From IMG/VR virus record IMGVR_UViG_3300041935_000006, positions 1 to 45,147 of that record: a DNA stretch of 45,147 nucleotides, one strand, 5' to 3'. The position numbers and the translations under genes were made by a program. The notes beneath the pieces are model-generated. The model saw nothing but the letters and a program-made list of their open reading frames with translations. It made no database searches and had not been told where the DNA came from. This stretch comes from a virus. This document shows positions 519 to 45,147 of the stretch, one piece after another; the stretch's first letter is position 1; every line of letters starts with the position of its first letter.

Positions 519-1232
519 CTACTCGGCGAACAGCGAAAGGGTATGAGGCCGAGCGAGTCGCGCGGCGGCGACGTCGTATTGCTCGACGAGGGCCTCGGCG
601 CCGACCGAGTTGCGCAGCTCAGAGCGCGCGGCGATCAGCGTCGTGCCACCACCCGCGCACGGGTCGACGACAAGTTGACCGGGCCGCGAGTAGTCGCGCA
701 CGAGCGCTTTCATGGCGTCGGTGCGCTTGCCACCCATGACGACGCGATCACCCTTGCCGGTGAACACGTACGCACCCGGGAGCGTGCCCCACCCCATCAA
801 CACGCGCGGTCGCGCGACGACAAGCCAGCAAGACCAGCTCGACGGCCCATCGCCGAGCAACCGCACGCGAGAGCCTATCTCAACGAGCGGGAGAGGCGCG
901 AACACATAGCGATCAGCGCTCGCGAGCTCGTCGGCCCATGCCGCGGCGAGCGTGTGATCGGTAAGGCTCACGAACCAGCCGCGGGTGCGGTCTGAAAAGA
1001 ACCGCACGCACTCGCGCACGTCGTCGGGTGTCCACGCTGCATAGTTGATCGGCCGCGTGACCTTGCGGTGCCCGTACGCCGGATCGTGGTGCCCATCGTT
1101 GCGCGTGCCGTCGTCGTGACCTGAGTGTGTGCGCGCCGAGTAAGGTGCGTCGGTGATCAGCGCGTCGGGCTCGACGTCGGCGAGCACATCCTGATAGCGG
1201 CCGAGGCGCAGCTCGCACCGTAGCTCGGTCAT
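519..1232 (-). CDS. DNA methyltransferase (N6-adenine/N4-cytosine type, beta-class motif order)
   Basis: Catalytic motif ITDAPYS (DPPY-like) lies N-terminal to the AdoMet motif VVDPCAGGGTTLIAA. Its start overlaps the upstream gene stop as ATGA. Confidence 0.85.
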   Translation of the reverse strand: MTELRCELRLGRYQDVLADVEPDALITDAPYSARTHSGHDDGTRNDGHHDPAYGHRKVTRPINYAAWTPDDVRECVRFFSDRTRGWFVSLTDHTLAAAWADELASADRYVFAPLPLVEIGSRVRLLGDGPSSWSCWLVVARPRVLMGWGTLPGAYVFTGKGDRVVMGGKRTDAMKALVRDYSRPGQLVVDPCAGGGTTLIAARSELRNSVGAEALVEQYDVAAARLARPHTLSLFAE

Positions 1233-1636
1233 GCTTGCACCTTGCCGAACGTCGCGGTGACGAGCTCGCCGACCTTACGCTCAACCTGACCGTACTTCGT
1301 CGCGAGGCGTACCCACTCGGTGCCGGCCTTGTCGGTGTGCGTCTTTTTCGGCCGCGGCTCGGTGCGCAGCTGCGCGCTTACGCCGAGGCTCGTGAGGTAC
1401 GACCGCACCCGGCCGCGGTCGCTGATCTCGTACCCGCGAAAGCCCTCGATGGGTCGCCACTGCTCGTCGGCCGCGGCGAGTGCGTTGCTAATCGCATCGT
1501 CTGTGCTCACGACACCACCAAGTGCACGGGCCGCACCCATGACGGCACGAGCGGCACGAGCCATAGGACACCGCGTTGTGTGAGCCGCACGAATGCCGAC
1601 GCGCGGTGCACGCTCACGATCTGCGCGCCGCACCAT
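1229..1636 (-). CDS. NUMOD4-motif protein (homing-endonuclease-related, catalytic HNH motif not evident)
   Basis: WRPIEGFRGYEISDRGRVRS matches the NUMOD4 pattern. The downstream segment VGELVTATFG sits where HNH_3 proteins carry VHRLVaeaF, and the His is missing. The start is uncertain: third-position G+C is low before about 1540-1564. Confidence 0.55.
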   Translation of the reverse strand: MVRRADRERAPRVGIRAAHTTRCPMARAARAVMGAARALGGVVSTDDAISNALAAADEQWRPIEGFRGYEISDRGRVRSYLTSLGVSAQLRTEPRPKKTHTDKAGTEWVRLATKYGQVERKVGELVTATFGKVQA

Positions 1637-2979: not shown

Positions 2980-3020
2980 TTGCATGGCGTCACAACGCGG
3001 CGTTATAACGCCGCGTGGTG
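2980..3020 (+). promoter_or_regulatory. Promoter/operator, site 2 (TTGCAT-N17-TTATAA, leaderless geometry)
   Basis: TTGCAT at 2980-2985 and TTATAA at 3003-3008. The 30-bp near-perfect palindrome CACAACGCGGCGTTA|TAACGCCGCGTGGTG spans 2991-3020. The ORF start GTG 3015 is 7 nt after the -10. Confidence 0.6.
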
Positions 3021-5488: not shown

Positions 5489-6002
5489 GGCGCCGCCACT
5501 CAAGAAACCGCTCGATTGGGACGAGCTTTACCCGGGCCGCTTCCTCAAGGCCGGGCAACTCGGCGAGCGCAAACCCACCCTCACGATCAAGGCCGTCGAG
5601 GTCGACCGGTTGCTCGACGACAAGGGGCAAGAGAAGGTCAAAGGGGTGATCACCTTCAACGAGATCGCCTATCAGCTCGCGCTCAACAAAACGAACGGGT
5701 TGTGTTTGCGCGAGATGTTCGGCCGCGAGCTCGAGAAGTGGGTCGGGCACAAGGTCACGCTGTACCGCTCGGCCGTCGAGTCGGGCTCGCGCAAGGGTGA
5801 GCCCGCGGTGCGTGTGTGGGGGTCACCCGAGCTCGAGGCCGACCGCACCGTCGAGGTCAAGTTGCCGCGCAAACGGCCTATGCAAATGGTCATGCACGCG
5901 GTGAAGGGCCGAGAGGCGACACAACGCGAGGTCGACAAACACCCGACCGAGGGCAAGGCGCCGGGCAACACGAGCGGCGGCGAGCCGCCCCCGTTCGGGT
6001 GA
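5475..6002 (+). CDS. Putative ssDNA-binding-like protein (weak call)
   Basis: It sits between two exonucleases. It has the OB-like core pattern seen in phage DUF669-type proteins (TLTIKAVE...ITFNE...LALNKTN...FG.E...W.G..V.LY). The C-terminal tip GGEPPPFG is reminiscent of SSB tips. Confidence 0.35.
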   Translation: MQMGEAPPLKKPLDWDELYPGRFLKAGQLGERKPTLTIKAVEVDRLLDDKGQEKVKGVITFNEIAYQLALNKTNGLCLREMFGRELEKWVGHKVTLYRSAVESGSRKGEPAVRVWGSPELEADRTVEVKLPRKRPMQMVMHAVKGREATQREVDKHPTEGKAPGNTSGGEPPPFG

Positions 6003-7386: not shown

Positions 7387-7948
7387 GCCCGGCGTGCTCG
7401 AGGAACATCGCCGCGCACTCGGGATCGGAGAGGAACGGGCCGAACACGCGGCGAAACTTCTCGCCCAGATACTTGGCTTTGAACTCGGGCACGACGGCGC
7501 ACTCGGCCTCGAAAGCGTAGTCGTACCCTTGCTCGATCACGATCTCGCACATCGAGGCGTACACGCTCACGAGCGCGGCGAACGCCTGCCACTCGCCGTG
7601 CGGCATCTTGAGGCCGACGTGATAGATCCGGGTCTGCACCGCGCGCATTTCGGCGATCTCTGAGAGCATCTCGGCGACGCGCTGCGCCGGCAACGGGGGC
7701 TCGCGAGGCGTTGCGCGGGTGCGCATGGGGCGGCCGAAGGTGCGACTCGGGTTGCGGCTGATCGCCCTACCCTCGTCGGGTGTCACCTCGCCGAGCTCGT
7801 GCAGGCGAGAGGCGAGCTCGGGCTCGGCGAATGCAGGGCACCGGCAGAAGGCGCCGGGCACGTCTCGAGCGAACACGCACGTATCAGGGAAGTGAAGGTG
7901 TCGCGTGTGCCCGCACGCGGCGCACGTGTCTTGCGGATCATGTGTCAT
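7373..7948 (-). CDS. Zinc-ribbon-motif protein (191 aa)
   Basis: ATG 7948 forms an ATGA overlap with the upstream stop. N-terminal motif CAACGHTRHLH...CRCPAF. The C-terminal domain has no recognisable motif. Confidence 0.6.
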   Translation of the reverse strand: MTHDPQDTCAACGHTRHLHFPDTCVFARDVPGAFCRCPAFAEPELASRLHELGEVTPDEGRAISRNPSRTFGRPMRTRATPREPPLPAQRVAEMLSEIAEMRAVQTRIYHVGLKMPHGEWQAFAALVSVYASMCEIVIEQGYDYAFEAECAVVPEFKAKYLGEKFRRVFGPFLSDPECAAMFLEHAGLKGR

Positions 7949-8301: not shown

Positions 8302-8516
8302 TCCTCGGGATAGACGCCGCACGACTCGTCGTCGGCGTCGGTGATGTGGATCCGGTGACACGTCGGGCACCGGTGCTCGGCGTCAATGTCCTCGTCCTCG
8401 TCCTCGACACCGAGGCAACACGCGCAACCGGGATCGGTCATGCCGAGCGAGCAACCGACGAGCGGCCCGAGCTTGTGATCGCTCTCGGTGTGGGGGCACC
8501 GCGCGCAGTACCTCAT
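8298..8516 (-). CDS. Small acidic zinc-ribbon-motif protein (72 aa)
   Basis: ATG 8516 forms an ATGA overlap. Motifs CARCPHTESDH...CACC and CPTCH. Confidence 0.55.
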   Translation of the reverse strand: MRYCARCPHTESDHKLGPLVGCSLGMTDPGCACCLGVEDEDEDIDAEHRCPTCHRIHITDADDESCGVYPEE

Positions 8517-8875
8517 GGGATCGCCGTGAACTTGTGCCCGCGCACGTTTGCGAGCAACTCGTCGAGCTCGAGGCGGCGACGTTCCGACTCGGCCGAGTCG
8601 CGCTTGTGCAGGCAATCCCAACAGAGGCGCCGCACCTCGGTGTCGAGGATCGAGCCGACGACGGCACCGATCGTCCCTCGTTGCATGGCGTCGTGCTCGA
8701 GCTCGTGCCGCTCGAGCTGTTCGTACGTGCGCACCTTCGGCGGCACCGGGTGCGGCACGTAGCGACCGAGCTCGACCTCGACGCGCTCGAGCGCGGCGAG
8801 CAGATCGGCACGCGGTCGAGCCGGGCCGAGCGAGTGTTGACCGCACGAGGTGCACTTGCGAGCGGACCGCCTCAC
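8513..8875 (-). CDS. Hypothetical CxxC...CxxC protein (120 aa)
   Basis: GTG 8875 forms a GTGA overlap. Motifs CTSCGQH and CWDCLH. Confidence 0.5.
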   Translation of the reverse strand: MRRSARKCTSCGQHSLGPARPRADLLAALERVEVELGRYVPHPVPPKVRTYEQLERHELEHDAMQRGTIGAVVGSILDTEVRRLCWDCLHKRDSAESERRRLELDELLANVRGHKFTAIP

Positions 8876-9626: not shown

Positions 9627-9675
9627 TGTGAACATGTAGTCAAGTGCACATGTTCACGTGTACACATGTCACCGC
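9627..9675. repeat. ACATGT-core repeat array A (three 16-bp units), candidate centromere/operator
   Basis: GTGAACATGTAGTCAA / GTGCACATGTTCACGT / GTACACATGTCACCGC. ACATGT cores sit at 9632, 9648 and 9664. GTGAACATGT (9628-9637) and ACATGTTCAC (9648-9657) are inverted. The array ends 20 nt before the parA ATG. Confidence 0.8.
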
Positions 9676-9694
9676 GTCGTGTAAGCCTGCGCGC

Positions 9695-10378
9695 ATGGCT
9701 GTTCGGATCTGTTTCGTCGGCGGCAAAGGGGGCCTCGGCAAGTCGACCCTCGCGATTTCGTGCGGGGTCGAGTGGCACCGTCGAGGTCGCCGCGTGCTCC
9801 TCGTCGACGTCGACGACGAGCAACTGTCGGCCGAGGAGTGGCACGACGACGCGCTCGAGCTCGAGCTCGACGCACCCCTCGTCGTGAGCATGGGTAACGA
9901 GGTGCGCACTCAGCTCGAGCCGGCCTCGGCCGCGTTCGAGATCGTGATCGTCGACACGGCCGGCCGCAACGGTCGGCGCTCGGCACACGTCATGGGACAG
10001 TGCGACCTTGCCGTGCTCCCGTGCGGGCCGAACCGGATCGAGCTGCGCCGACTCCCGAAAACGGTTGCGCAAGTGCGCGACGTGCAGGCGGTGCGGCCCA
10101 AGCTCGACGCCGCGATCCTCGTGACGCGCAAGCAACCAAACACGGTGATCGGGAGGCAGGCCCGGCGAGCGATTGAGGAATGCGACTTCCCGATCCTCGA
10201 CGTCGAGCTGTTCTATCGCATCACGTACGGCGAGGCGATCGCGGCCGGGCTCGGGCCGACCACGTACGACCCATCGAGTGACGCCGCACGCGAGGTCGGC
10301 GCACTCGTTGACGAGCTCGAGCGCCGGCTCGAGCTGCACACCACAACCAAACCAAAGAGGAAGCATGCCACCCGCTAA
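9695..10378 (+). CDS. parA: ParA-family partition ATPase (small, type Ib-like)
   Basis: Deviant Walker A CFVGGKGGLGKST, Walker A' LLVDVD and Walker B-like IVIVDTAG. 227 aa with no N-terminal HTH extension. Confidence 0.85.
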   Translation: MAVRICFVGGKGGLGKSTLAISCGVEWHRRGRRVLLVDVDDEQLSAEEWHDDALELELDAPLVVSMGNEVRTQLEPASAAFEIVIVDTAGRNGRRSAHVMGQCDLAVLPCGPNRIELRRLPKTVAQVRDVQAVRPKLDAAILVTRKQPNTVIGRQARRAIEECDFPILDVELFYRITYGEAIAAGLGPTTYDPSSDAAREVGALVDELERRLELHTTTKPKRKHATR

Positions 10379-10721
10379 ACCGACACCGACCGTGCGCTCG
10401 TCGACGCGCGCGAAAAAGCAACCGGCACCGCTCGAGGGCCGCGCGCTGCAACGCGAGCTCGACCGGATCGGCCGCAAACACGAGAGGCCGGCCGAGGGTG
10501 AGCACCCCGTCGCCGGCCGCGGGATCGTCAAGATGCCCGGCCGCGCCACCAAAGAGGGCCGCAAGGGTGAGCGCGTCACTCGTCGCGCGACGTTCTATCT
10601 CCCGCTCGAGGTGCACGACGAGCTCGAGGTCACCGCCAAGCGCCGCGGTATGTCGGTGAGCAACGCCGCGGCCGAGCTCCTCGCCGACGCGCTCGGTGTC
10701 ACGCTCGAGGCGACGGGATGA
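10365..10721 (+). CDS. Ribbon-helix-helix DNA-binding protein (ParG/omega-like candidate centromere binder)
   Basis: ATG 10365 follows AGAGGAAG and overlaps the parA end. A long basic N-terminal tail precedes the RHH pattern RATFYLPLEVHDELEVTAKRRGMSVSNAAAELLADAL. Confidence 0.65.
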   Translation: MPPAKPTPTVRSSTRAKKQPAPLEGRALQRELDRIGRKHERPAEGEHPVAGRGIVKMPGRATKEGRKGERVTRRATFYLPLEVHDELEVTAKRRGMSVSNAAAELLADALGVTLEATG

Positions 10722-11400: not shown

Positions 11401-11675
11401 ACCGCGCGCAGCGCCGAGCCGGCAAGATCCCGCACTCGTTCCGGGTGCGCACCGGGATCCACTACATGACCAACGGCACCTTCGTCGCGTTCGCGCGCAT
11501 CGATCGCGAGGACGGCTCGACGCAATGGTGGGAGTCGACGCCGTACACCGACGAGGCCGAGGCCGAGCGGCACCGCGACGAGCTCTCGACCGGCATCCGA
11601 GCGATCCTCGCAAAGCAGCAAACGAACCTCGCCGGACTGCGCGTGCACCCGGTGACGAAAGGCGGTGACGCGTGA
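11397..11675 (+). CDS. Hypothetical protein (92 aa)
   Basis: GTG 11397 forms a GTGA overlap and follows AAGGGAGGG. Confidence 0.5.
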   Translation: MNRAQRRAGKIPHSFRVRTGIHYMTNGTFVAFARIDREDGSTQWWESTPYTDEAEAERHRDELSTGIRAILAKQQTNLAGLRVHPVTKGGDA

Positions 11676-11719
11676 ACATGACGACAAGTGAACATGACGA
11701 CAAGTCAACACGTAACCAG
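11672..11719. repeat. ACATGT-family repeat array B (16-bp units x3)
   Basis: GTGAACATGACGACAA occurs twice exactly (11672-11687 and 11688-11703), followed by GTCAACACGTAACCAG. Cores ACATGA/ACAAGT/ACATGA/ACAAGT/ACACGT fall every 8 bp from 11676. Confidence 0.8.
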
Positions 11720-11941
11720 GCGTTGCCCGCGCAGTGCGTGCACGTCGCCGAGGGCGAGCTCGAGCACTTGCACACGCTCGAGCTCACCACCCGCACCGAG
11801 GCCGTGCAGCCCGATTACCGATACGTGATCAACGGCGATCGCATGCGTCTGTGCGCGTTCTGCACGGGCAAGGTGATCGGGATGCTATCGCGGTCGGAGT
11901 TCACCGGCGGTGCACTGCTCGCGCCCGAGGCCGAGCGGTGA
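11672..11941 (+). CDS. Hypothetical protein (89 aa)
   Basis: GTG 11672 (GTGA overlap) or ATG 11678/11694. The first 16 codons are the repeat array itself. There is a CAFC motif. Confidence 0.5.
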   Translation: MNMTTSEHDDKSTRNQALPAQCVHVAEGELEHLHTLELTTRTEAVQPDYRYVINGDRMRLCAFCTGKVIGMLSRSEFTGGALLAPEAER

Positions 11942-12513
11942 TTTTCACGTTCGGATTCGGTCACTCGTGCTCGTGCGGGCTCTCGTTGCGCGAGTGCTAC
12001 GTCGAGATCGGCGGCGATTACGACACCGCGCGCGCGGCAATGATCGATCGCTACGGTGTGAAGTGGGCCTTTGAGTACGACACGCTCGCCGACGCGACCG
12101 GCGAGCACCCGATCGAGCTGCGCCGCCTCGAGCCGAACGACGAGTGCGGGTGCGGGGGGCTCGGCCGGCAACCGTGGGATCCGGGTGAGAGCCCGGTGCC
12201 ACCCGAGGTCATGACGAGGATCCCACCCGAGCGGCTCGCCGAGATCGAGCGGCTCGCGGGTGCGTTCGTTGCCGAGCACCTCGAGACGAGCGCCGAGCGG
12301 GTCGACGCGTTCGCACACGGCGTCGACGAGTCGGCCCGGGAGGCGTTCGGCAAACCGCTCGCGATCCTCGTGCTCGGCACGGCCCGAACCGGGTTCACCG
12401 TCGCGTCACCGCTCGAGCAACCCGAGGTCGCTCGGGAGCTGCGCGCGCTCCTCGCTCGCATCGAGGCCGAGCTCGAGGGCCGGCCCCCCGTCGGCAAACC
12501 GCACACCTCGTAG
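11938..12513 (+). CDS. Conserved hypothetical phage protein (191 aa)
   Basis: GTG 11938 forms a GTGA overlap. The N-terminal pattern IFTFGFGH...YVEIGGDYDTARAAMIDRYGVKWAFEY recurs in many phage proteins of unknown function. Confidence 0.6.
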   Translation: MIFTFGFGHSCSCGLSLRECYVEIGGDYDTARAAMIDRYGVKWAFEYDTLADATGEHPIELRRLEPNDECGCGGLGRQPWDPGESPVPPEVMTRIPPERLAEIERLAGAFVAEHLETSAERVDAFAHGVDESAREAFGKPLAILVLGTARTGFTVASPLEQPEVARELRALLARIEAELEGRPPVGKPHTS

Positions 12514-12640
12514 CTCCTCGTCGAAGCGGCTCGCCTCGTCGACGAAGATCCGCACCCCGCTCTTGAGCTGCACGAACGCGTCGACGGCGAACCCGGCGAG
12601 CGCTCGAGCTCGGCGCTTGCGCTCGCGTTTGGTTATACGT

Positions 12641-12668
12641 CGGGTGCGCTGCACCCGTCTTATATGTC
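12641..12668 (+). terminator. Candidate weak intrinsic terminator of the parA-side operon
   Basis: Perfect 7-bp stem CGGGTGC-gct-GCACCCG (12641-12657) followed by TCTTATATGT. The U tract is interrupted, so support is weak. Confidence 0.3.
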
Positions 12669-12930
12669 CGGGAGGGCCGCGCACCCCACGAACAAAGGCC
12701 GTGCCAGCGTCGAATTCAGGCCGACGGATCGCCGACGATCGTCCGAAAGTGACCATACGTGCAAGCGCGCTTGTCGAAAAAGCGCGTGGTTTCGTGACGG
12801 GGGGTGTGACGAATCCTTGCGCTGCGCACGTGGGCTATCGTACGAGTCCGTCACTACCGAAAACAACTAGCGACGGAAACACAAAACCCACGGATCACAG
12901 CCTGCCAGGGCTCCCCGTGGGTCTCACTCG

Positions 12931-14007
12931 ATGCGCCAAACTACTTCGACACGTGCCCGCGTGCAACATCGTTGCGCGCGCGATGTGCAGGACTGCGCCG
13001 ACGCGCAGCTCGAGCTCGACGACGAGACCCTCGACGCGACGTTGCGCGAGCTGTACGCCGCGCACGACGAGGGCAACCCGTGTGACCTCTCGGTCGCCGA
13101 GCTCGCTGCGCGGTACTCACCCGGCCCTCACGGCGAGCGCGCGATCCGGCGAGCCCACGTGCGCATCCAGCGGACCTATCGCGGCCGGTTCGTGCAGCGC
13201 GCGCGCAGCTACCGACGGATCACCCTCTCCACTGCGCGATGGATCATCCCGTTCGATAGAGATCCAGGGGGTGGTGGTAGATCGGACGTCTCTAATTCCG
13301 AATTCGTTGATCTGCGAATTGGAGATCTTGATCTAGAGGCAAACGCAGATCGCGCACGCGCGTGTGAGCCTGCCCCTCGAGCTACTCGACCTCCCGAGAG
13401 GCGAGAGCGGCGACCGGCAACGCGCCTGCACGTACCGCGCACCCCACTGCTCGAGCACCCGATCGGCATCGAGGCGGGAGTTTTGGCCGAGGTCGACCGC
13501 GTGCACGGCGCAAAGTGGCTCTCGCGCCTCGTGCGCGAGCTGCACAAGCCCAAGTGTCACGAGCACCCGGCCGAGTGCGAGCTCGCGTTGCGCACCCTCT
13601 CACGGCGCAGCACCGACAACCCGTTGCGCATGTTCCGTTTCTTGCTCAACGAGGCGATCGACGGCGACGCGCTGATCGAAACCGCCGAGCTCGACAAGCT
13701 CGCCGACGCGGCCGAGGAGTGCGCTCGAGCGCGGTACGCGTGGGATCCCGACAACCCGTCGACGCATTGGCCTGATCTGATTCCCGAGGGTACGGCGGCA
13801 CCCCCACCCGAGGAGCTCGAGCCCGATCCCGAGGAGCTTGCGCGCATCGCTGCACGCAAACGCCTCGAGCACGAGGTCGACGAGAAACGGCGACGGCGAG
13901 AGGCCGAGCGCATCGTCGGGTTGTTGCTTCGTGCGACGGGCCGATCACCGCCGACGGCGGCCGAGCGGTTCCTCACCGTGATGCAGGGCCGCGGGCTCGC
14001 GCTCTGA
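12931..14007 (+). CDS. Hypothetical two-domain protein with an embedded low-G+C repeat island
   Basis: The frame stays open across the island with no stop. Third-position G+C is high in 12985-13255 and 13440-14007 and low in 13258-13440. The N-part has an HTH-like segment LSVAELAARYS...ERAIRRAHVRIQ. The start is uncertain: ATG 12931, GTG 12961 or GTG 12985. Confidence 0.55.
   Translation: MRQTTSTRARVQHRCARDVQDCADAQLELDDETLDATLRELYAAHDEGNPCDLSVAELAARYSPGPHGERAIRRAHVRIQRTYRGRFVQRARSYRRITLSTARWIIPFDRDPGGGGRSDVSNSEFVDLRIGDLDLEANADRARACEPAPRATRPPERRERRPATRLHVPRTPLLEHPIGIEAGVLAEVDRVHGAKWLSRLVRELHKPKCHEHPAECELALRTLSRRSTDNPLRMFRFLLNEAIDGDALIETAELDKLADAAEECARARYAWDPDNPSTHWPDLIPEGTAAPPPEELEPDPEELARIAARKRLEHEVDEKRRRREAERIVGLLLRATGRSPPTAAERFLTVMQGRGLAL
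13255..13352. repeat. Low-G+C island with clustered AGATC/GATCT and CGAATT repeats
   Basis: gatAGAGATCCa, gtAGATCgg, CGAATTCGTTGATCT / CGAATTGGAGATCT / TGATCT tandem units (13300-13335) and gcAGATCgc. This is six AGATC/GATCT copies within about 100 bp. Confidence 0.7.
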
Positions 14008-14010
14008 ATT

Positions 14011-14040
14011 CACAACGCGGCGTTACAACGCGCGCCGAGT
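14011..14040 (+). promoter_or_regulatory. Promoter/operator, site 3 (half-conserved copy)
   Basis: CACAACGCGGCGTTA (14011-14025) is identical to 2991-3005. It is followed by CAACGCGCGCC. The -10-like hexamer is TTACAA. It lies 36 nt upstream of ATG 14076. Confidence 0.5.
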
Positions 14041-15001: not shown

Positions 15002-15328
15002 ATGCGCAAACAACACCCGTACGCCGGCCACTTCATCGCGTCGTTTGACTGCCTGTTTCGGCTGCACACCTCGGTCAACGGCCGCTTTCGGATCTCGACG
15101 GTCGGCGAGTGGCACCCGGATATCCCGCCGAACGTCGGCGAGCGCCGATACAAGCACCCCCCGCGCGAGATCGGGGTCGATCGCTTGTACGAAACGATGG
15201 TGTTCCCGCTCGGTGCCGACGGTGAGCCGGTGTCTTGGGAGGGCATCGATCATCGGTCGTACAACACGGCCGCCGAGGCCGAGGCCGGTCACGAGGAGCT
15301 CGTCAGCAAGTGGGAGGCGGCACCGTGA
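15002..15328 (+). CDS. Conserved hypothetical protein (108 aa, YETMVF motif)
   Basis: ATG 15002 lies 1 nt after the upstream stop. Confidence 0.6.
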   Translation: MRKQHPYAGHFIASFDCLFRLHTSVNGRFRISTVGEWHPDIPPNVGERRYKHPPREIGVDRLYETMVFPLGADGEPVSWEGIDHRSYNTAAEAEAGHEELVSKWEAAP

Positions 15329-15603
15329 AGCCACGCAAGAAGCACCCCAACACCGTGACGATCTACGGCCTCGCGCAGCTCGCGCTCGACACGTTCGGAG
15401 CGCTCACCGCGGCCGAGGTGCGTGCCCTGATCGCCGACGATCCCGAGGGCCTCGCGCCTCACGAGCGGTACGACCTCACCCTCTCGCGCGTCACGGCCGC
15501 GCTGCGCTCGATGGTGCTCGACCGCTCGGCCCTCTCGGTCACCGAGGACGGGATCGCGCGCTACAGGCTGCGATCGGCGTCACGTGTACATGTGAACATG
15601 TAG
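15325..15603 (+). CDS. Winged-helix-like small protein (92 aa)
   Basis: GTG 15325 forms a GTGA overlap and follows GGGAGG. Segment LTAAEVRALI...LTLSRVTAALRSMVLDRSALSVTEDGIARYRL. The last six codons (RVHVNM) are encoded by repeat array C. Confidence 0.55.
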   Translation: MKPRKKHPNTVTIYGLAQLALDTFGALTAAEVRALIADDPEGLAPHERYDLTLSRVTAALRSMVLDRSALSVTEDGIARYRLRSASRVHVNM

Positions 15604-15628
15604 ACATGTGAACATGTGAACATGTTCA
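15585..15628. repeat. ACATGT-core repeat array C (five contiguous 8-bp units)
   Basis: ACATGTGA ACATGTAG ACATGTGA ACATGTGA ACATGTTC with cores at 15588, 15596, 15604, 15612 and 15620. It ends in the perfect 12-bp palindrome TGAACATGTTCA (15617-15628). It contains the stop codons of both convergent genes. Confidence 0.85.
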
Positions 15629-16294
15629 TACGATGCCGACGGCCATGCCGTGTGCGTGGATCTTGCGCAGTAGATCGAGGCCCGGGTCGGGCTTGACCGG
15701 CGAGAAGTGCAAGTGTCCGGCCGGCCCTCGGAACGTTGCCGCGATGTGTGCCGGCAACACGGTCGGGAACACGTCGCCGTTGAGGATCGGCACGCGCATC
15801 GGGAGCGAGTAGGCCGAACAGAGCGCCGCGTTGAGCGCGATCACGCTCGCGATCTGCGCCGGGAAAAACTCGCCGTACTCGATCAGCCGACCATGGATCC
15901 GCTCGGTGCGCCGGGTACGGGTGAAACCCTTGTCGGGTGCCTTGCCGTGCCCGCGGTTGATGATCTCGATCCCGACGCCGTACGAGTTGCCGCCCCCGTC
16001 GGCGCAGTGCGCGCACCTCGCGTCGGCGTCGGCGCACTGATAGATCTCGCCGAGCTGATCGACGATGAAGTGCACCGAGAGAGCCTCGGGCTTGCCCGTG
16101 GTCGCGCTCTTGTGATCACGCATGAACTCGAACGCGCGATCGGCCGAGTTCTCGGCGGCCGTCCAATGATTGATGATCCATCGAGTCTCGTGCCGCATGC
16201 GCGTCAAGAAGTGCATGCCGGTCGACGTCCAGGGCCGCACCGGTGCGAGGCACCTGTACGACTGACCGCGCACGATGATCTCGCCGACGCTCAC
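15626..16294 (-). CDS. Endolysin, N-acetylmuramoyl-L-alanine amidase (Amidase_2/PGRP type)
   Basis: Motifs INHWTA, SVHFIVDQLGEIYQ and AHCADGGGNSYGVGIEIIN, as in T7-lysozyme-type amidases. GTGA overlap at 16294. Confidence 0.85.
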   Translation of the reverse strand: MSVGEIIVRGQSYRCLAPVRPWTSTGMHFLTRMRHETRWIINHWTAAENSADRAFEFMRDHKSATTGKPEALSVHFIVDQLGEIYQCADADARCAHCADGGGNSYGVGIEIINRGHGKAPDKGFTRTRRTERIHGRLIEYGEFFPAQIASVIALNAALCSAYSLPMRVPILNGDVFPTVLPAHIAATFRGPAGHLHFSPVKPDPGLDLLRKIHAHGMAVGIV

Positions 16295-36949: not shown

Positions 36950-37177
36950 CTAGCGAGTGCGTGCAGACTCTTGACGTTTGACGTTTGCAGACTGATCCCA
37001 CGTCGCCGCCGCGATCCCGACGTGCCTCTCGAGCATTGCGCGCGCTCTTTTGCTCGGTTTCCACGTGCCCGAGCTCCAATGCGACACGGCCCCTTGCGAT
37101 ACGTGCGCGCGCAACGCGACCTCGCGCGCGCGGATACGTTGCAACACGCACAGTAAGAGTCGGCGGCCCTCGGTCAC
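36950..37177 (-). CDS. Small XRE-type HTH protein wedged between terminase and portal
   Basis: GTG 37177 forms a GTGA overlap with the terminase stop. HTH segment VALRAHVSQGAVSHWSSGTWKPS. Confidence 0.6.
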   Translation of the reverse strand: MTEGRRLLLCVLQRIRAREVALRAHVSQGAVSHWSSGTWKPSKRARAMLERHVGIAAATWDQSANVKRQESARTR

Positions 37178-38853
37178 CGCTTTTCCCAGATCGCCGCACC
37201 GGCGTACGGGTCGAACGGATCGCGCGCGTTGCGGGTCTGATAGTCAGACTGCACGACGCTATCGGTTGAGGTGCTCTCGCGTAGTGAGAGCGGCTCCCAT
37301 GCTGACAGTGCGAGCGCGTCGAGCCGATCGGGTGAGCGGCCGAGGATCTTGCGCAGCGTCTCTTTCGCCGTGACCTTGAGTTTGCCGTCGGCGCGTTGAT
37401 GCCACTCGGGCGCGTGCAGCTCTTTCGCAAGTTTGGTGTCCTCGGGAATCGCACCCCCGGCGTCGAACCAGGCCGAGAGCGAGGCGGCGAGAGCGTCGCG
37501 CATCAAGTGGTAGATCTCGGGTTGCCGCAAGCTCTTGTCGCTCGAGCTGATCCCGACGACCTCGAACGAGCCCTCGTTGTCGTCGGCGTAGTTGCGCAGT
37601 GCGGTGTACACCTTCGAGCCGATCGAGCCGCCGCGGTCGACGACGACGACGGGTGTCTCGCGCGGTGTCTTGAGGCGCGCGATCAGCTGCACCACTTCGA
37701 GCAAGTGCCCGGCCGCGTCGAGCCCGCGACGCACGACGAGCTCGAGCAACTTGAGCCCGCGGCGAGGCGCAAACACGATGTCATCGCCCGAGCCCTTCTC
37801 ACCCGCGGGATCCACGCCGATGTACAAGCGGCCCGACGCCGGTGCCTCGCTCCATCGCTCCTCGGCTTGCGCGATGGTGTGCAGCGAGAAGATCTTGCCG
37901 GCCTCGTGCTCGGCAAACTCGCCGAGGACACGCACCTTGTACAGGGCCGACTTGACCCCCCACTCCTCGGCCTTTTCCTCGACCCACTCGCGCGTCGCGA
38001 GGCCCGGGATCAAGCGCTTGCCGCTCACTACGTTCGGCGTCGACGCGCTCGAGACCGTCAGGCAGAAGTAGAAGCGGGCCTTGCTATTGAACGCGTCGTA
38101 AAACTCGCCGTCGTTCTTTGTGGGGTTGCCGAACAGCGCGACGCGCGCCGAGCCAGCACGGTTGCCCTCGATCGCCTCGTAGATCTCGCGCGCGACGCCG
38201 CTCGCCTCGTCGACGATGTACAGAACGTTTTCGCCGCTGATACCCGCGACCGCCTCGGCCTGTTTCGCGGTGAACCCGACGATCTCGCGAAACGACTGAT
38301 CGTCTGACTTGAGGCCGGTGCGTGCGAGCTCGCCGAGGTCGCCGTCGATTAGCGACGAGTGAGGGCACGGCCGCGTGATGCGCGCGTTCGGGTTGCGGAT
38401 CAGCTCGGCCTTGCACTCGATGCACCGACCAGAGCGCGCGTGCATCATGCGCAGCTCGCGCCACAAGATCTCGTCGACCTGCCTCGACGTCGTGCTCGTC
38501 ATGACGACGCGGGCCGCGTCGAAGCTGCAATAAAACCAGAGAGCGAGGAGCGCGGCCGAGGCCGACTTGCCGATCTTGTGCCCGGATTTCACGGCGACGC
38601 GCATGTGGTCGCGTACACCCTCGAGAATCGCGATCTGTGCCGACCACGGGTCGACGCCTGCGATCTCGCGAGCGAACCGCACCGGCTCCTCGCGGTACAT
38701 CGGGCTCGGGAACGTGACGCCGAACGACGCGTGCAGCGCGGGAAAGAACGACGCCGCGAAGTCGCCGGCATACGTGAGCGGCCCCCCGACAAACTTGAGG
38801 GGCCGGCCGGGCCTACGCTTCGCTATCTCGCTCGAGGCGGTGCTCGTCGCCAT
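37174..38853 (-). CDS. terL: Terminase large subunit
   Basis: Walker A VKSGHKIGKSA and Walker B VLYIVDEAS, with a C-terminal RNase-H-like nuclease region (IGVDPAG...). 559 aa. Confidence 0.9.
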   Translation of the reverse strand: MATSTASSEIAKRRPGRPLKFVGGPLTYAGDFAASFFPALHASFGVTFPSPMYREEPVRFAREIAGVDPWSAQIAILEGVRDHMRVAVKSGHKIGKSASAALLALWFYCSFDAARVVMTSTTSRQVDEILWRELRMMHARSGRCIECKAELIRNPNARITRPCPHSSLIDGDLGELARTGLKSDDQSFREIVGFTAKQAEAVAGISGENVLYIVDEASGVAREIYEAIEGNRAGSARVALFGNPTKNDGEFYDAFNSKARFYFCLTVSSASTPNVVSGKRLIPGLATREWVEEKAEEWGVKSALYKVRVLGEFAEHEAGKIFSLHTIAQAEERWSEAPASGRLYIGVDPAGEKGSGDDIVFAPRRGLKLLELVVRRGLDAAGHLLEVVQLIARLKTPRETPVVVVDRGGSIGSKVYTALRNYADDNEGSFEVVGISSSDKSLRQPEIYHLMRDALAASLSAWFDAGGAIPEDTKLAKELHAPEWHQRADGKLKVTAKETLRKILGRSPDRLDALALSAWEPLSLRESTSTDSVVQSDYQTRNARDPFDPYAGAAIWEKR

Positions 38854-38868
38854 TCACCCGGGACACTC

Positions 38869-39234
38869 CTAACGCGCGCGTGCGCCGGACAGTACCTGAG
38901 GGATCAGCTCGCTCGCCGCGTCGACGTGGTGTCGGAGCGAGCGGTATGCCGCGACGAGGCGCCGCACTTGATCGGGTGTCCATCCTCGCGAGAACGCGTC
39001 GAGGGCCTCGTCGGTGAGGCACTCGAGCTCGAGGCCGTACAAGATCGAGCCGACGAGCTCGGTGTTACGCGCGCGGTGTGTGGCGAACGCGGCGGCGAGC
39101 GTCGCCGCGAGGTCGGGGTGCTCGTCCTCGGGCTTGGCGCCGTCGAGGATCGCGAGCATGGCGAGCTTTGCGTACTGTCGGCCGAGCTCGACCTCGACCT
39201 CGTTCGGGGTGCCAACCGTCACGAGATACCCCAC
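38869..39234 (-). CDS. Hypothetical protein (117-121 aa)
   Basis: GTG 39234, or GTG 39222 as a GTGA overlap with the upstream stop. Confidence 0.5.
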   Translation of the reverse strand: MGYLVTVGTPNEVEVELGRQYAKLAMLAILDGAKPEDEHPDLAATLAAAFATHRARNTELVGSILYGLELECLTDEALDAFSRGWTPDQVRRLVAAYRSLRHHVDAASELIPQVLSGARAR

Positions 39235-39479
39235 CCGCGCATCGAGCTCTTGATCGTGCGGATCTGCCTCCCGGCCTCGGCGACTTGAGCGCGCGCGTTG
39301 CCGAGCTTGCGCGACTCGGCCGGCGAGCGGATCCGTACGTTGAGCTCGCGCAGCGCCGTCAGTATGGGGGCCGTCGAGACTTTGAACGCCTCGGCGAGCT
39401 CGACGATCGTCTCGCCCTTGCGGTAGCGACTTGCCACCTGATCGCGCTGATCCTCGGTCAAAACACGCTTACCACTCAT
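39219..39479 (-). CDS. HTH DNA-binding protein, first gene after repeat array D (small-terminase-like or regulator)
   Basis: ATG 39479 follows AAAGGAA. HTH segment GETIVELAEAFKVSTAPILTALRE. Confidence 0.6.
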   Translation of the reverse strand: MSGKRVLTEDQRDQVASRYRKGETIVELAEAFKVSTAPILTALRELNVRIRSPAESRKLGNARAQVAEAGRQIRTIKSSMRGWGIS

Positions 39480-40260: not shown

Positions 40261-40353
40261 GGTTGACGGTCAAGGTGCATTTTACAGATATTTACTCCCG
40301 CACCACGCACACGAGGCCCCCCGGCCTTGGCCCCCCAATAGACTGTCATGCCC

Positions 40354-43306: not shown

Positions 43307-43429
43307 GGTCCCTACCCTACGCAGCACAGGTCCAGAGGTCCCTCTCCCTAAAGGAGAGAGGGACCTCAGGGACCTCTGTGCGGGTCCAGGTCCGGGACCT
43401 CGATGGACCTCGATGGACCTCGCGGACCT
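43307..43429. repeat. GGACCT/AGGTCC iteron array with long inverted repeat (candidate replication origin)
   Basis: AGGTCC at 43328, 43336 and 43388. GGACCT at 43361, 43370, 43395, 43405, 43415 and 43424. Variants at 43307 and 43382. The last four are spaced 10, 10 and 9 bp apart. The hairpin 43335-43346/43356-43367 has 12 contiguous bp. Confidence 0.8.
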
Positions 43430-43470
43430 CGGCGAATCGCTTGCACCGGGTGACAAACAGCCATGCATCC

Positions 43471-45039
43471 TCATGACGGCACTCCCGGTTGAGCAACCCG
43501 ATAGACCCCGTCGACGCGCACGAGCACCCCCTCTTCGACGAGCTCGCGGGTGATCGAGTTGCCGTCGCGCTTGCGCATGCCGGCGCCGCGAATGATGGCG
43601 GCGAGCGTGCGGCACTCCTCACGCGCGCACGCGGCGAGGGCTCGCTCGCGCAGCTGCGTTGACTTGGCTCGCTCGCGGTCGACGTCGTCATGCTCGGGCT
43701 TCTCGATCTCGCGCCAAGAGAGCGACGAGAAGTCGAGCCGCGTGCGGATCTCGGGTTTGGCACTGCCGAGGCGGTTTTTCGCGACCTCGAGATCGACGAC
43801 GCCGACCTCGCCGGTGACCGAGCGCAACCCGATCAGCAAGTGCGCGGCGTACTCGATAGCCCGCGACTCGGCGCCGGCACCGAGCGCGCTGATATCCTGA
43901 TCGCGCTTGCCCGTGCGATACCCCGCGCGGCTCATCTCCGAAATCGCGACGACGAGCGTGCCGCGGCGGCAAATGCGCTTGATCACCCGCACCGTCGCTT
44001 CGATCTGCTCGCGGGTGGTCTCGTACTGCAACGCCTCGCGACACGGCACGGTTTGGATCGAGTCCACGAACATCACGCGCGGCCGGTCGCCTGCGCCCTC
44101 GAGCAAGAGCCGCTCGGCATCCTCGAGAAACAGCTCGTCGTCGTACGGGTCGATCACGACGATCGCGCGAGCTCGGGAGCTGCGCGCGAAGGTCTCACGT
44201 CGACCGGGGTCGACACCCTCGAGCGCCTCGCGGTCGTGCCCGTCGAGCTGACCGAGCCGCGTGACAATCGCCTCGCGCGACTCGTCGGCCGCGAGGAATG
44301 CAACCGCGCACCCGGCCCGCTCCCATCCATCGGCGAGCCATGCGCACAGATTCGTCTTACTCGCACCCGGCGCACCGAGCAGTGCGACAAAGCGGCCGAG
44401 AGGCAGACCCCCACGCGTCGCCGCGTCGAGCGCCGGCAACCCGGTCGGCAAACGCGTGCCGACGGCGCCGAGTGCGAGTGCGAGCTCAGAGAGCGTCGGG
44501 ATGCGCGCGACAGACTCGTCACGGTCGACGGCCTCAAGGGCTGCGCGCGCACCATCGAGCGCGGCGAGGTACCGCGGGAGCTCGTCACTCCCGGCCTTGC
44601 CGGCGACGAGCGCGGCGGCATCGTGCACCGCGCGTCGACGAGCGAGCCGGCGCAATCGACGCGTGTCGGTCTGATCGCTCGGCATGGTCTCGGTGACCGC
44701 GAGCAAATACTCATCGCCGCCGACGGCACCGAGCCGACCCGCGTCGTGCAGCGCGTCGTGCAACGCGGCCGTGTCGTGAGGTTTGCCCTCCGACGCGAGC
44801 TTGCACAGAACCGCGAAGATCTGGCCGTTCGAGTGCGAGTAAAAGTCGTCGGGCACGACCTTTGACGCGAGCGCGAACCCGGGCAAGAGCATCGCCGCGC
44901 ACAACACCGCGCGCTCGAGCACGAGGTCGTGCAGCTCGAGCCGATCCTCGTGCCGCAAGCTCGCCGCTCGGCCGTTGCTTGGCGTCGGTTTCACGGCCCG
45001 CACCGGCCCCCCACTCGTGTTTGATGATTCAGCACGCAC
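43471..45039 (-). CDS. DnaB-family replicative helicase with winged-helix-like C-terminal extension
   Basis: DnaB N-domain pattern ERAVLCAAMLLP...DFYSHSNGQIFAVL. Walker A LLGAPGASKT and Walker B VMFVDS. The C-terminal 70 aa (RTLAAIIRGAGMRKRDGNSITRELVEEGVLVRVDGVYRV) look like a wHTH. The GTG start at 45039 is uncertain. Confidence 0.8.
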   Translation of the reverse strand: MRAESSNTSGGPVRAVKPTPSNGRAASLRHEDRLELHDLVLERAVLCAAMLLPGFALASKVVPDDFYSHSNGQIFAVLCKLASEGKPHDTAALHDALHDAGRLGAVGGDEYLLAVTETMPSDQTDTRRLRRLARRRAVHDAAALVAGKAGSDELPRYLAALDGARAALEAVDRDESVARIPTLSELALALGAVGTRLPTGLPALDAATRGGLPLGRFVALLGAPGASKTNLCAWLADGWERAGCAVAFLAADESREAIVTRLGQLDGHDREALEGVDPGRRETFARSSRARAIVVIDPYDDELFLEDAERLLLEGAGDRPRVMFVDSIQTVPCREALQYETTREQIEATVRVIKRICRRGTLVVAISEMSRAGYRTGKRDQDISALGAGAESRAIEYAAHLLIGLRSVTGEVGVVDLEVAKNRLGSAKPEIRTRLDFSSLSWREIEKPEHDDVDRERAKSTQLRERALAACAREECRTLAAIIRGAGMRKRDGNSITRELVEEGVLVRVDGVYRVAQPGVPS

Positions 45040-45147
45040 AACCCCCCGCGCGCGCTGTTAGTGAGAGCTCTTCACGTCTGCATCGTCGTCGTCGTCGTCA
45101 CTATCGTCGTCGTCGTCACCCGGGCCGACCGGGTTCGGGTCGAACAG
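45021..45147. repeat. Terminal direct repeat, right copy (identical to 1..127)
   Basis: See the left copy. Exact 127-bp identity. Confidence 0.95.

Follow-up and report, generated by a model that had tools for sequence, protein, structure and literature searches.

Four arrays of an 8-bp repeat in an uncultured phage genome as probable iterons of a type Ib ParA-RHH partition system

The DNA analyzed here is the virus record IMGVR_UViG_3300041935_000006 of IMG/VR, positions 1 to 45,147 (45,147 nt, in the following called the window). It carries four arrays, named C1 to C4, of contiguous 8-bp units which consist of the hexamer ACATGT or a variant of it plus 2 bp. These arrays are likely to be the binding sites of a ribbon-helix-helix (RHH) protein encoded by the phage itself, which would work together with a ParA ATPase as a type Ib partition system of the pMF1/ParF kind. 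This interpretation is based on the presence of a ParA-RHH gene cassette, on the conservation of array position and register among relatives with phage-specific hexamer dialects, and on the match to the experimentally bound iterons of plasmid pMF1. Judged from its sequence, the window is best read as a phage-plasmid, i.e. a circular prophage-plasmid of about 45 kb, with the arrays as its centromere and operator iterons.

The most regular array is C2 (15580..15627; none of the four arrays is assigned to a strand). It is located between the par-led plus-strand gene block and an endolysin gene and consists of one degenerate unit, TCACGTgt, followed by five perfect units of ACATGT plus 2 bp (15588-15627: ACATGTGA ACATGTAG ACATGTGA ACATGTGA ACATGTTC). 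The five hexamers start at 15588, 15596, 15604, 15612 and 15620, a spacing of exactly 8 bp, and positions 15580-15630 read tcacgtgt ACATGTga ACATGTag ACATGTga ACATGTga ACATGTtc at. The palindrome TGAACATGTTCA (15617-15628) forms the right end. Tandem Repeats Finder reported a period of 8 with 5.2 copies. A first-pass annotation had described the five units at exact 8-bp spacing, the terminal palindrome and three clusters in total, all of which was reproduced; it had missed the degenerate unit TCACGT at 15580 and an entire fourth array at 11668-11715.

Two convergent genes end at C2, as had been claimed before. The last gene of the plus-strand block (15325..15603, plus strand; start uncertain, open reading frame (ORF) open from 15235; function unknown) terminates at a TAG within the array (15601-15603). 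From the other side, the Amidase_2 endolysin gene (15626..16294, minus strand; Pfam Amidase_2 3.3e-19), which is the last gene of a long minus-strand block, terminates at a TGA (15628..15626) that corresponds to the TCA following the last ACATGT. The plus-strand stop within C2 results largely from the motif, since a hexamer ending in T followed by a GA or AG spacer produces TGA or TAG. As the unit length of 8 is not divisible by 3, all three plus-strand frames are shut by the stops at 15593, 15601 and 15609. On the minus strand only two stops are found in or beside C2, one of them being the endolysin TGA.

The hexamer ACATGT occurs 14 times in the window, compared to 4.50 ± 2.08 expected from 100 dinucleotide-preserving shuffles, and a count of 14 was reached in 0/100 of these. 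The suspected enrichment thus holds against a shuffled background. Eleven of the 14 copies lie in three clusters (9632/9648/9664; 15588-15620 with five copies; 39503/39511/39527), in agreement with the earlier count. Isolated copies number three (14634, 22060 and 36734) and not two, 36734 having escaped notice, which is approximately the chance expectation. The relaxed motif ACRYGT showed no genome-wide enrichment (74 versus 73.6 expected). Consequently, it is ACATGT itself and its clustering that carry the signal. Every cluster holds the 8-bp register, its gaps being filled by the degenerate units TCAAGT, ACGTGT and ACACGT. Runs of at least 4 consecutive units in the AC..GT frame were found at exactly the four arrays of the window (8 hits counting both strands; null mean 0.58), of which three are placed at the beginning, in the middle and at the end of the par-led block.

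This block starts with parA (9695..10378, plus strand), encoding a 227-aa Walker-type partition ATPase without an N-terminal helix-turn-helix (HTH) domain (type Ib, ParF-like; Pfam CbiA 1.5e-11). The CbiA/ParA-type match begins at residue 5, and the best solved relatives, the 5u1g ParA chain (214 aa) and TP228 ParF (4dzz, 206 aa), are likewise aligned from residue 5 with E ~1e-10. A tblastn comparison with 72,556 plasmids yielded as the three best matches myxobacterial sequences only, namely two records of Sandaracinus pSa001 (39% identity) followed by ParA of Myxococcus fulvus pMF1 (pMF1.22; 32.9% identity over 96% of the query, E 1e-20). The next gene (10365..10721, plus strand) overlaps the parA stop by 14 nt and encodes a candidate centromere-binding protein (CBP) of 118 aa. 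This protein has a basic, probably disordered N-terminal tail and a C-terminal RHH domain (residues ~71-110) containing RRATFYLPLEVHDELEVTAKRRGMSVSNAAAELLADAL. RHH_5 of Pfam matched below cut-off in five of the six family members, the window protein among them. The best solved-structure matches of a six-member family profile were all RHH proteins (2k9i, i.e. pRN1 ORF56, E 0.008; 7e4j; 6sbw), among them an RHH antitoxin and CdbA, and the 118-aa protein also aligns to the Mnt repressor. A model predicted from a two-sequence alignment exhibited the order beta-alpha-alpha at residues 71-110 with a pLDDT of 54; only this order of secondary structure was used. The family is narrow, with 19 representative clusters among 1.84 billion proteins.

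The third component is array C1 (9624..9679; TCGTGTga ACATGTag TCAAGTgc ACATGTtc ACGTGTac ACATGTca CCGCGTcg), which occupies the divergent intergenic region directly upstream of parA. Thus a small ParA without HTH, a CBP gene directly after parA whose product has a tail and an RHH domain (consistent, if individually weak) and a repeat array at the promoter were all found. On sequence grounds, parA, the 118-aa RHH gene and C1 are laid out as a type Ib partition cassette. One option of the first-pass annotation, which did not spell out the link to ParA, had been a centromere-like site to which the RHH protein binds; cassette, conservation and pMF1 iterons favor this option over the others.

Array C4 (11668..11715; ACGCGTga ACATGAcg ACAAGTga ACATGAcg ACAAGTca ACACGTaa) is located between two genes inside the par-led block. 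It was detected by the frame scan and by Tandem Repeats Finder (period 16, 2.4 copies) and is composed of one-mismatch units in the same 8-bp register. The TGA of the gene upstream of it (11673-11675) lies inside the array. Array C3 (39503..39534; ACATGTtc ACATGTgt ACACGTgc ACATGTac) is found far from the par-led block, between a 240-aa gene and a small HTH gene which precedes the terminase genes.

The window was compared with its ParA relatives, which comprise L014 (ParA 90% identical; a partial 23-kb contig) and L020-L024 (50-57%; genomes of ~42-45 kb). The JGI contig L014 is the same as L016 and identical to the ENA contig L015; compared to the window its DNA is ~80%, its RHH protein 88% and its ParA 90% identical. 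The TerL proteins of the distant family members are 60-76% identical to that of the window. In L014, C1, C4 and C2 all have positional counterparts that hold the same register but carry other substitutions. Its C2 counterpart (ACACGTat ACATGTgc ACACGTga ACATGTtc ACGCGTtg) is 16 bp shorter than that of the window. Since this difference is exactly two units, the arrays evolve through gain and loss of units. What is conserved between the arrays of the window and of L014 is the frame and the period.

A counterpart of C1 lies upstream of parA in 6/6 relatives (L014, L020, L021, L022, L023 and L024). The arrays of the distant relatives read ACATATcg ACATGCtg TCAAGTcg ACGTGTcg ACATGCta in L020, ACAAGTat ACTTGCac ACAAGTca in L021, ACAAGTgc ACCGGTgg TCAAGTgc ACCGGTgc ACAAGTgc in L022, GCATGTct AGGTGTag ACGTGTct AGGTGTag ACACCTag in L023 and ACAAGTgc ACAAGTcc ACCGGTgc ACAAGTgc in L024. 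An array is also present at the terminal convergent junction of the plus-strand block in 5/5 relatives whose sequence reaches that far, i.e. L014 and the four distant ones L021-L024. It lies right after the RHH gene in L021, at the amidase junction in L022 and L023, and in a 240-bp convergent gap in L024. Mid-operon arrays analogous to C4 are found in L022 and L024 in addition to L014. Arrays upstream of the terminase-proximal genes, corresponding to C3, were present in 2/3 genomes checked, each in the dialect of its own phage: AGGTGTct ACGTGTct ACACGTct in L025 (position 9146; the same phage as L023) and ACAAGTag ACTTGTga ACAAGTga in L026 (position 764; the same phage as L021). In L027, which represents the phage of L020, that position has neither an array nor a gap.

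Each genome uses one hexamer dialect across its arrays, either ACAAGT/ACTTGT, or ACAAGT together with ACCGGT, or ACATGT/AGGTGT/ACGTGT, within the shared frame AC-NN-GT-NN. A single dialect at all arrays of a genome is the pattern expected of one co-evolving binder. Over 101 units the fixed positions were A in 89%, C in 93%, G in 93% and T in 87%; these arrays had been selected by that very frame. The dialects also bear on a methylation switch, considered in view of the CATG within ACATGT and of a methyltransferase fragment encoded by the phage. This idea was set aside since the cores found in the relatives at corresponding sites are non-palindromic or different (ACAAGT, ACCGGT, AGGTGT). The fragment in question is a DNA methyltransferase-like gene adjoining an HNH endonuclease gene (519-1232 and 1229-1636, minus strand), of which only the C-terminal ~60 residues match methyltransferase families; at its position the relatives carry Dam or N6_N4_Mtase genes.

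Further searches extended the family little. Megablast of 8-20 kb against annotated phages and plasmids found no close DNA relative, pattern searches in IMG/VR for RHH and ParA found no relatives, and ParA scans of metagenomes and genomes gave only one close relative and distant ParAs. Loci of IMG/VR anchored on TerL (48-54% identity) contained no arrays, which is uninformative since the ParA status of those loci is unknown. The exact pattern ACATGTNNACATGTNNACATGT matched nine IMG/VR contigs, which were rejected: all are of low G+C, none has a ParA or RHH homologue and their arrays resemble simple tandem repeats. A sequence that matches 33 nt of C2 at 94%, ACATGTAAACATGTGAACATGTGAACAT, is present in an unrelated pair of low-G+C viral contigs (IMG/VR, 39% G+C; L004 2821-2848 and L009 541-568), in whose examined stretch neither a ParA nor an RHH homologue was detected. 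One family member was binned with an Anaeromyxobacteraceae metagenome-assembled genome. Together with the myxobacterial affinities of ParA this bin gives two independent pointers which hint at a host among the Myxococcota. In L022 an AcrVA2-like gene (anti-CRISPR family; 11800-12735) directly follows the mid-operon array, which suggests that the par-led block holds accessory cargo expressed in the prophage.

The region between C1 and parA was inspected for promoter elements. Only 15 nt separate the end of C1 from the parA ATG, and they include the -10-like hexamer TAAGCC (9682..9687, plus strand), 7 nt before the ATG, as part of a putative leaderless promoter. In five genomes (the window, L014, L020, L022 and L024) a hexamer TA(A/G)NC(T/C/A) precedes the parA ATG by a constant 6-7 nt. 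This fixed position suggests a leaderless parA mRNA, with the array lying over the -35 and spacer region. On the minus strand the deviant TCAAGT unit of C1 forms a -35-like TTGACT (9638..9643), a presumed element of a divergent promoter; the same strand reads TTGACA in L014 and L020 and TTGACC in L022. TTGAC(A/T/C) within C1 is a possible -35 of that promoter. A scan for sigma-70 consensus promoters found nothing. Through its overlap with the parA promoter region C1 probably has the role of an autoregulatory operator, and it is presumed to be operator and centromere at once.

The same distribution of arrays might also be explained by gene control alone. In that case they would be operator or roadblock sites of a regulator, C2 insulating the converging transcription units, C4 and C3 blocking elongation inside operons and ParA being incidental. 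The terminal array indeed tracks the convergent junction that ends the par-led block in 6/6 genomes with data, whatever the minus-strand neighbor, C4 and C3 lie between genes of one strand, and the junction has no canonical terminator. Moreover, type Ib RHH centromere-binding proteins are also repressors (PMC9499535, PMC3130281). However, the arrays always accompany a ParA gene, the homologous arrays of pMF1 support plasmid stability, and pB171 likewise has centromeres, parC1 and parC2, on both flanks of its parAB genes. As a replacement for partition this explanation is unlikely. Regulation and partition are not exclusive, and a roadblock is therefore better regarded as a possible added role.

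Likewise, C2 on its own might act as a bidirectional intrinsic terminator, with hairpins of the self-complementary ACAUGU stopping both converging transcripts. RNA of 15560-15660 folds better than shuffled sequences on both strands (z = -3.45 and -3.13), and the junction arrays of several relatives show dyad symmetry. Such z-scores are expected, since arrays of palindromic units are self-complementary, and the plus strand of L014 showed no excess folding (z = +0.27 and +0.36). Thus a hairpin terminator was rejected as a conserved property. A G+C-rich stem with a U-tract, or any other terminator-like site, is missing at the junction. Similar arrays precede parA or separate co-directional genes, places at which termination would do harm, and those of pMF1 are protein-binding sites. 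Taken together, termination by C2 is very unlikely.

The surroundings of C3 raise the question of DNA packaging, which the first-pass annotation had also named. Immediately downstream of C3 follows the small HTH gene (39219..39479, minus strand), encoding an 86-aa protein with weak matches to HTH_7 and to phrog_1303 'DNA binding protein', then a 121-aa gene and then the large terminase gene (37174-38853; TerL family). An array directly upstream of such genes would suit a terminase recognition (pac) site bound by the small HTH protein. Some pac sites are clustered hexamers, for example in P1. Nevertheless, we consider a packaging function of the arrays highly improbable. There are four of them, three in the par block. 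The phage represented by L020 and L027 has arrays at parA and none near its terminase, while L028, a close terminase relative (TerL 74% identical; contig not among the ParA matches), has no AC..GT array near the terminase. Finally, plasmids that lack terminase genes (pMF1, pSa001) carry homologous arrays as well, which leaves the earlier proposal without support.

Upstream of C3 a further non-coding element, GTAAA-N6-GTAAA-N8-10-TTGAC, was observed directly before the start codon of the 240-aa gene (window ~40261-40297, minus strand), where it is preceded by a G-rich palindrome. It is conserved in L026 (~20-62), L027 (~8495-8536) and L028 (~7885-7907). This element may be a late-promoter, activator or packaging element.

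The genome layout, obtained by GC3-based gene calling and family scans, is in accordance with a phage-plasmid. Positions 1-127 are identical to 45021-45147 (127 nt). This terminal identity, an assembler overlap, indicates a complete, circularly closed (or terminally redundant) genome of ~45,020 bp. An early/replication block on the plus strand contains an exonuclease VIII/DUF3799 gene, a DnaQ-like exonuclease and a Cro/CI-type HTH gene. It is followed by a short minus-strand block at 7.4-9.4 kb and by the plus-strand block that starts with parA (9.7-15.6 kb). The long minus-strand block comprises the Amidase_2 endolysin, tail genes, Mu-like head genes and TerL and, past C3, an endonuclease VII gene, a DnaB-like helicase gene and others. 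Thus ParA-RHH, a DnaB-like helicase and head, tail and TerL genes are carried together on one genome. No integrase, recombinase, transposase or protelomerase was found among the scanned proteins of the window, many of whose ORFs have no family match. Within the par-led block, 12260-14007 contains two overlapping 358-aa ORFs in different frames without family match, with a poor third-position GC signal at 12.5-13.5 kb; this may reflect a mis-call, a frameshift or recently acquired DNA.

Short tandem repeats on a circular replicon that encodes its own helicase could also be replication iterons or mark a replication terminus. For the four arrays this is extremely improbable. Different repeats, GGACCTCGAT x3.8 (43395-43431), lie beside the DnaB-like helicase gene, the expected place of an origin, and L028 has an analogous but different repeat cluster at the helicase position. 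The cumulative GC skew shows no switch at 15.6 kb, and the 8-bp units match partition iterons instead. A replication-termination site, as formerly suggested for C2, consequently finds no support, origin-like iterons being located elsewhere. In full, the origin-like iterons of the window extend over 43359-43431 and include AGGGACCTC x2 in addition; the repeat of L028 (~5520-5690) is GGTTCCC/GGGAACC.

A second operator-like motif, AACGCSGCGTT, forms 13-bp-spaced pairs at two places, 1920-1943 in the divergent region that adjoins the Cro/CI-type HTH gene (2130-2618) and 2994-3017 (2994/3007). A single copy is located at 14014-14024. In total, the window has 8 matches with at most one mismatch versus 2.8 expected, and the motif recurs in L014, L021, L022, L023/L025, L024 and L028. 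It is probably the site of another regulator. Because this different motif fills the divergent region by the Cro/CI-type HTH gene and other early intergenic gaps, we regard a role of the 8-bp arrays as CI-type operators as unlikely.

How would a partition system built on these arrays work? By analogy to pMF1, TP228 ParG and pSM19035 omega we infer the binding of the arrays by this RHH protein, its stoichiometry, the partition function and the plasmid lifestyle. The RHH gene would be co-transcribed with parA. One RHH dimer would contact each hexamer by inserting its beta-ribbon into the major groove, and dimers on neighboring units, 8 bp apart, would cover the array by cooperative binding. ParA, recruited and stimulated in its ATPase activity by the basic N-terminal tails, may then segregate copies of the circular prophage-plasmid of ~45 kb when the cell divides. 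C1 would serve as autoregulatory operator besides its function as centromere. C2, with five perfect contiguous units closing the par-led unit, is the best candidate for the main centromere and would resemble ItB of pMF1 and parC2 of pB171. Via C3, upstream of the terminase-proximal genes, the RHH protein might influence the expression of late or packaging genes. A far-reaching version, which appears rather doubtful, makes the RHH protein a transcriptional gatekeeper of the prophage state as well: when coated, C3 would keep transcription out of the terminase and morphogenesis genes, and C2 would be a two-way roadblock between the constitutive par-led block and the lysis/late block. If true, segregation and lytic silencing would both be read from the occupancy of 8-bp arrays by one protein, a stoperator-like logic executed by a ParB.

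Several observations weigh against the partition interpretation. Between window and L014 the arrays are 69-77% identical in nucleotide sequence, a level that does not clearly exceed the one seen in their flanks. For relatives lacking ParA, the link between arrays and ParA depends on the single locus L028, where the absence of ParA was deduced from the list of matches and not from the whole contig. No clean signal was obtained for covariation between the DNA-facing beta-strand residues of the RHH proteins and the central dinucleotide of the hexamers. The RHH assignment itself is derived from sub-threshold Pfam matches, weak PDB profile matches and a model with a pLDDT of 54. Compared with ParB of pMF1 (pMF1.23), the phage RHH profile aligned in register over the RHH domain, but weakly (hhalign E 1.2e-3, probability 19%), and tblastn/BLAST found nothing. 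The pMF1 system needs ParC, which is encoded upstream of parA and without which its ParA is not active, whereas the phage has no ParC: there is no ORF between C1 and parA, and the best tblastn match of pMF1 ParC in the window (E 0.21) lies at an unrelated place. Finally, the sequence alone does not single out one of the four arrays as the functional centromere.

If partition is nevertheless their function, a striking repeat is explained without anything exotic, and a family of uncultured phages of ~42-45 kb is tied to a plasmid lifestyle. These phages could serve as starting material for myxobacterial vectors and for the study of phage-plasmids outside enterobacteria and actinobacteria. The phage-specific dialects on a fixed AC..GT frame constitute a natural series for investigating RHH-DNA recognition and partition incompatibility.

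Among known systems, the MetJ repressor shares geometry alone. A MetJ RHH dimer binds each palindromic 8-bp met box, and two to five contiguous boxes are bound cooperatively. MetJ differs in being a chromosomal metabolic repressor which needs a co-repressor and has no ParA partner, and it is not homologous.

Phage N15 is also maintained as a plasmid with several centromere sites, its partition protein recognizing the four separate sites IR1-4 (PMC7205306). In contrast to the window, N15 uses a type Ia system (HTH ParB/SopB, single 16-bp palindromes, spreading) on a linear genome with protelomerase, without RHH protein and without tandem 8-bp arrays. The N15 centromere sites are dispersed in the phage genome, and the N15 Sop system reportedly facilitates late gene expression, going by the title of a 2008 paper cited in PMC11652158. 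An array before the packaging genes of the window raises the possibility of a comparable link between a partition protein and late-gene control.

Omega of pSM19035 is an RHH ParB on contiguous short repeats which acts as centromere binder and global regulator. One omega dimer binds each 7-bp heptad, several parS arrays lie over promoters, and at least 4 contiguous repeats are needed for ParA activation (PMC9499535); C2 has five units. Unlike the arrays described here, those of pSM19035 consist of non-palindromic 7-bp heptads (WATCACW), are all located at promoters and never at a convergent junction, and no sequence similarity was detected.

The TP228 system is closer, ParF being among the best solved relatives of ParA and ParG an RHH protein with a flexible N-terminal tail. 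ParG binds 4-bp boxes separated by 4-bp spacers, i.e. with the same 8-bp period, with one dimer per box and cooperative coating, and the array is operator and centromere (PMC3130281). However, TP228 has ACTC boxes with AT-rich spacers instead of a 6-bp near-palindrome with 2-bp spacers, all its boxes lie upstream of parFG without distant arrays, and ParG was absent from the sequence search matches of this analysis.

On plasmid pSa001 of Sandaracinus amylolyticus, ~105 tandem 8-bp units (ACAAGCtc/ACGAGCta, 16-bp super-period) are located directly upstream of parA (L031 2118-2959). By hhalign, the RHH-like CBP encoded downstream is homologous to the phage RHH family (88% probability, E 2.9e-6). 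This repeat is a putative, unusually long centromere of the same class.

The closest known counterpart is the parCAB system of pMF1 (Sun et al. 2011, PMC3235114; Sheng et al. 2021, PMC7843461). In 2011 this plasmid was described as the sole autonomous one known from the Myxococcota (PMC3235114). Its ParB binds the iterons ItA upstream and ItB downstream of the par operon and the dispersed ItC-F, as determined by EMSA and footprinting (Sun et al. 2011, PMC3235114). The 8-bp iteron unit has the motif AGATGTCT, ParB represses the par operon, and the arrays support plasmid stability (PMC3235114). In the pMF1 sequence we found ItA with 5.2 and ItB with 4.6 copies of contiguous 8-bp AGATGT+2 units (AGATGTct AGATGTct ...). 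Both systems thus use a hexamer plus 2 bp in contiguous units, AGATGT and ACATGT being one base apart, and both have a small CBP with an RHH-like C-terminus encoded right after parA, arrays upstream and downstream of the operon and dispersed copies. The C-terminus of pMF1 ParB (L030 2180-2440), KTLYLTVQIQRRLAVEAARTGKEHSQIAEELFDKYL, follows the beta-alpha-alpha pattern of an RHH domain, which suggests that this ParB belongs to the RHH class and binds with one dimer per 8-bp unit; an RHH assignment is not stated in PMC3235114 or PMC7843461. Unlike on pMF1, the system of the window resides on a phage genome, its 'downstream' array is ~5 kb away at a convergent junction with a lysis gene, and another array precedes terminase-proximal genes. 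The system proposed here is hence of a kind already characterized on pMF1, but carried by a phage, without ParC and with arrays at other positions.

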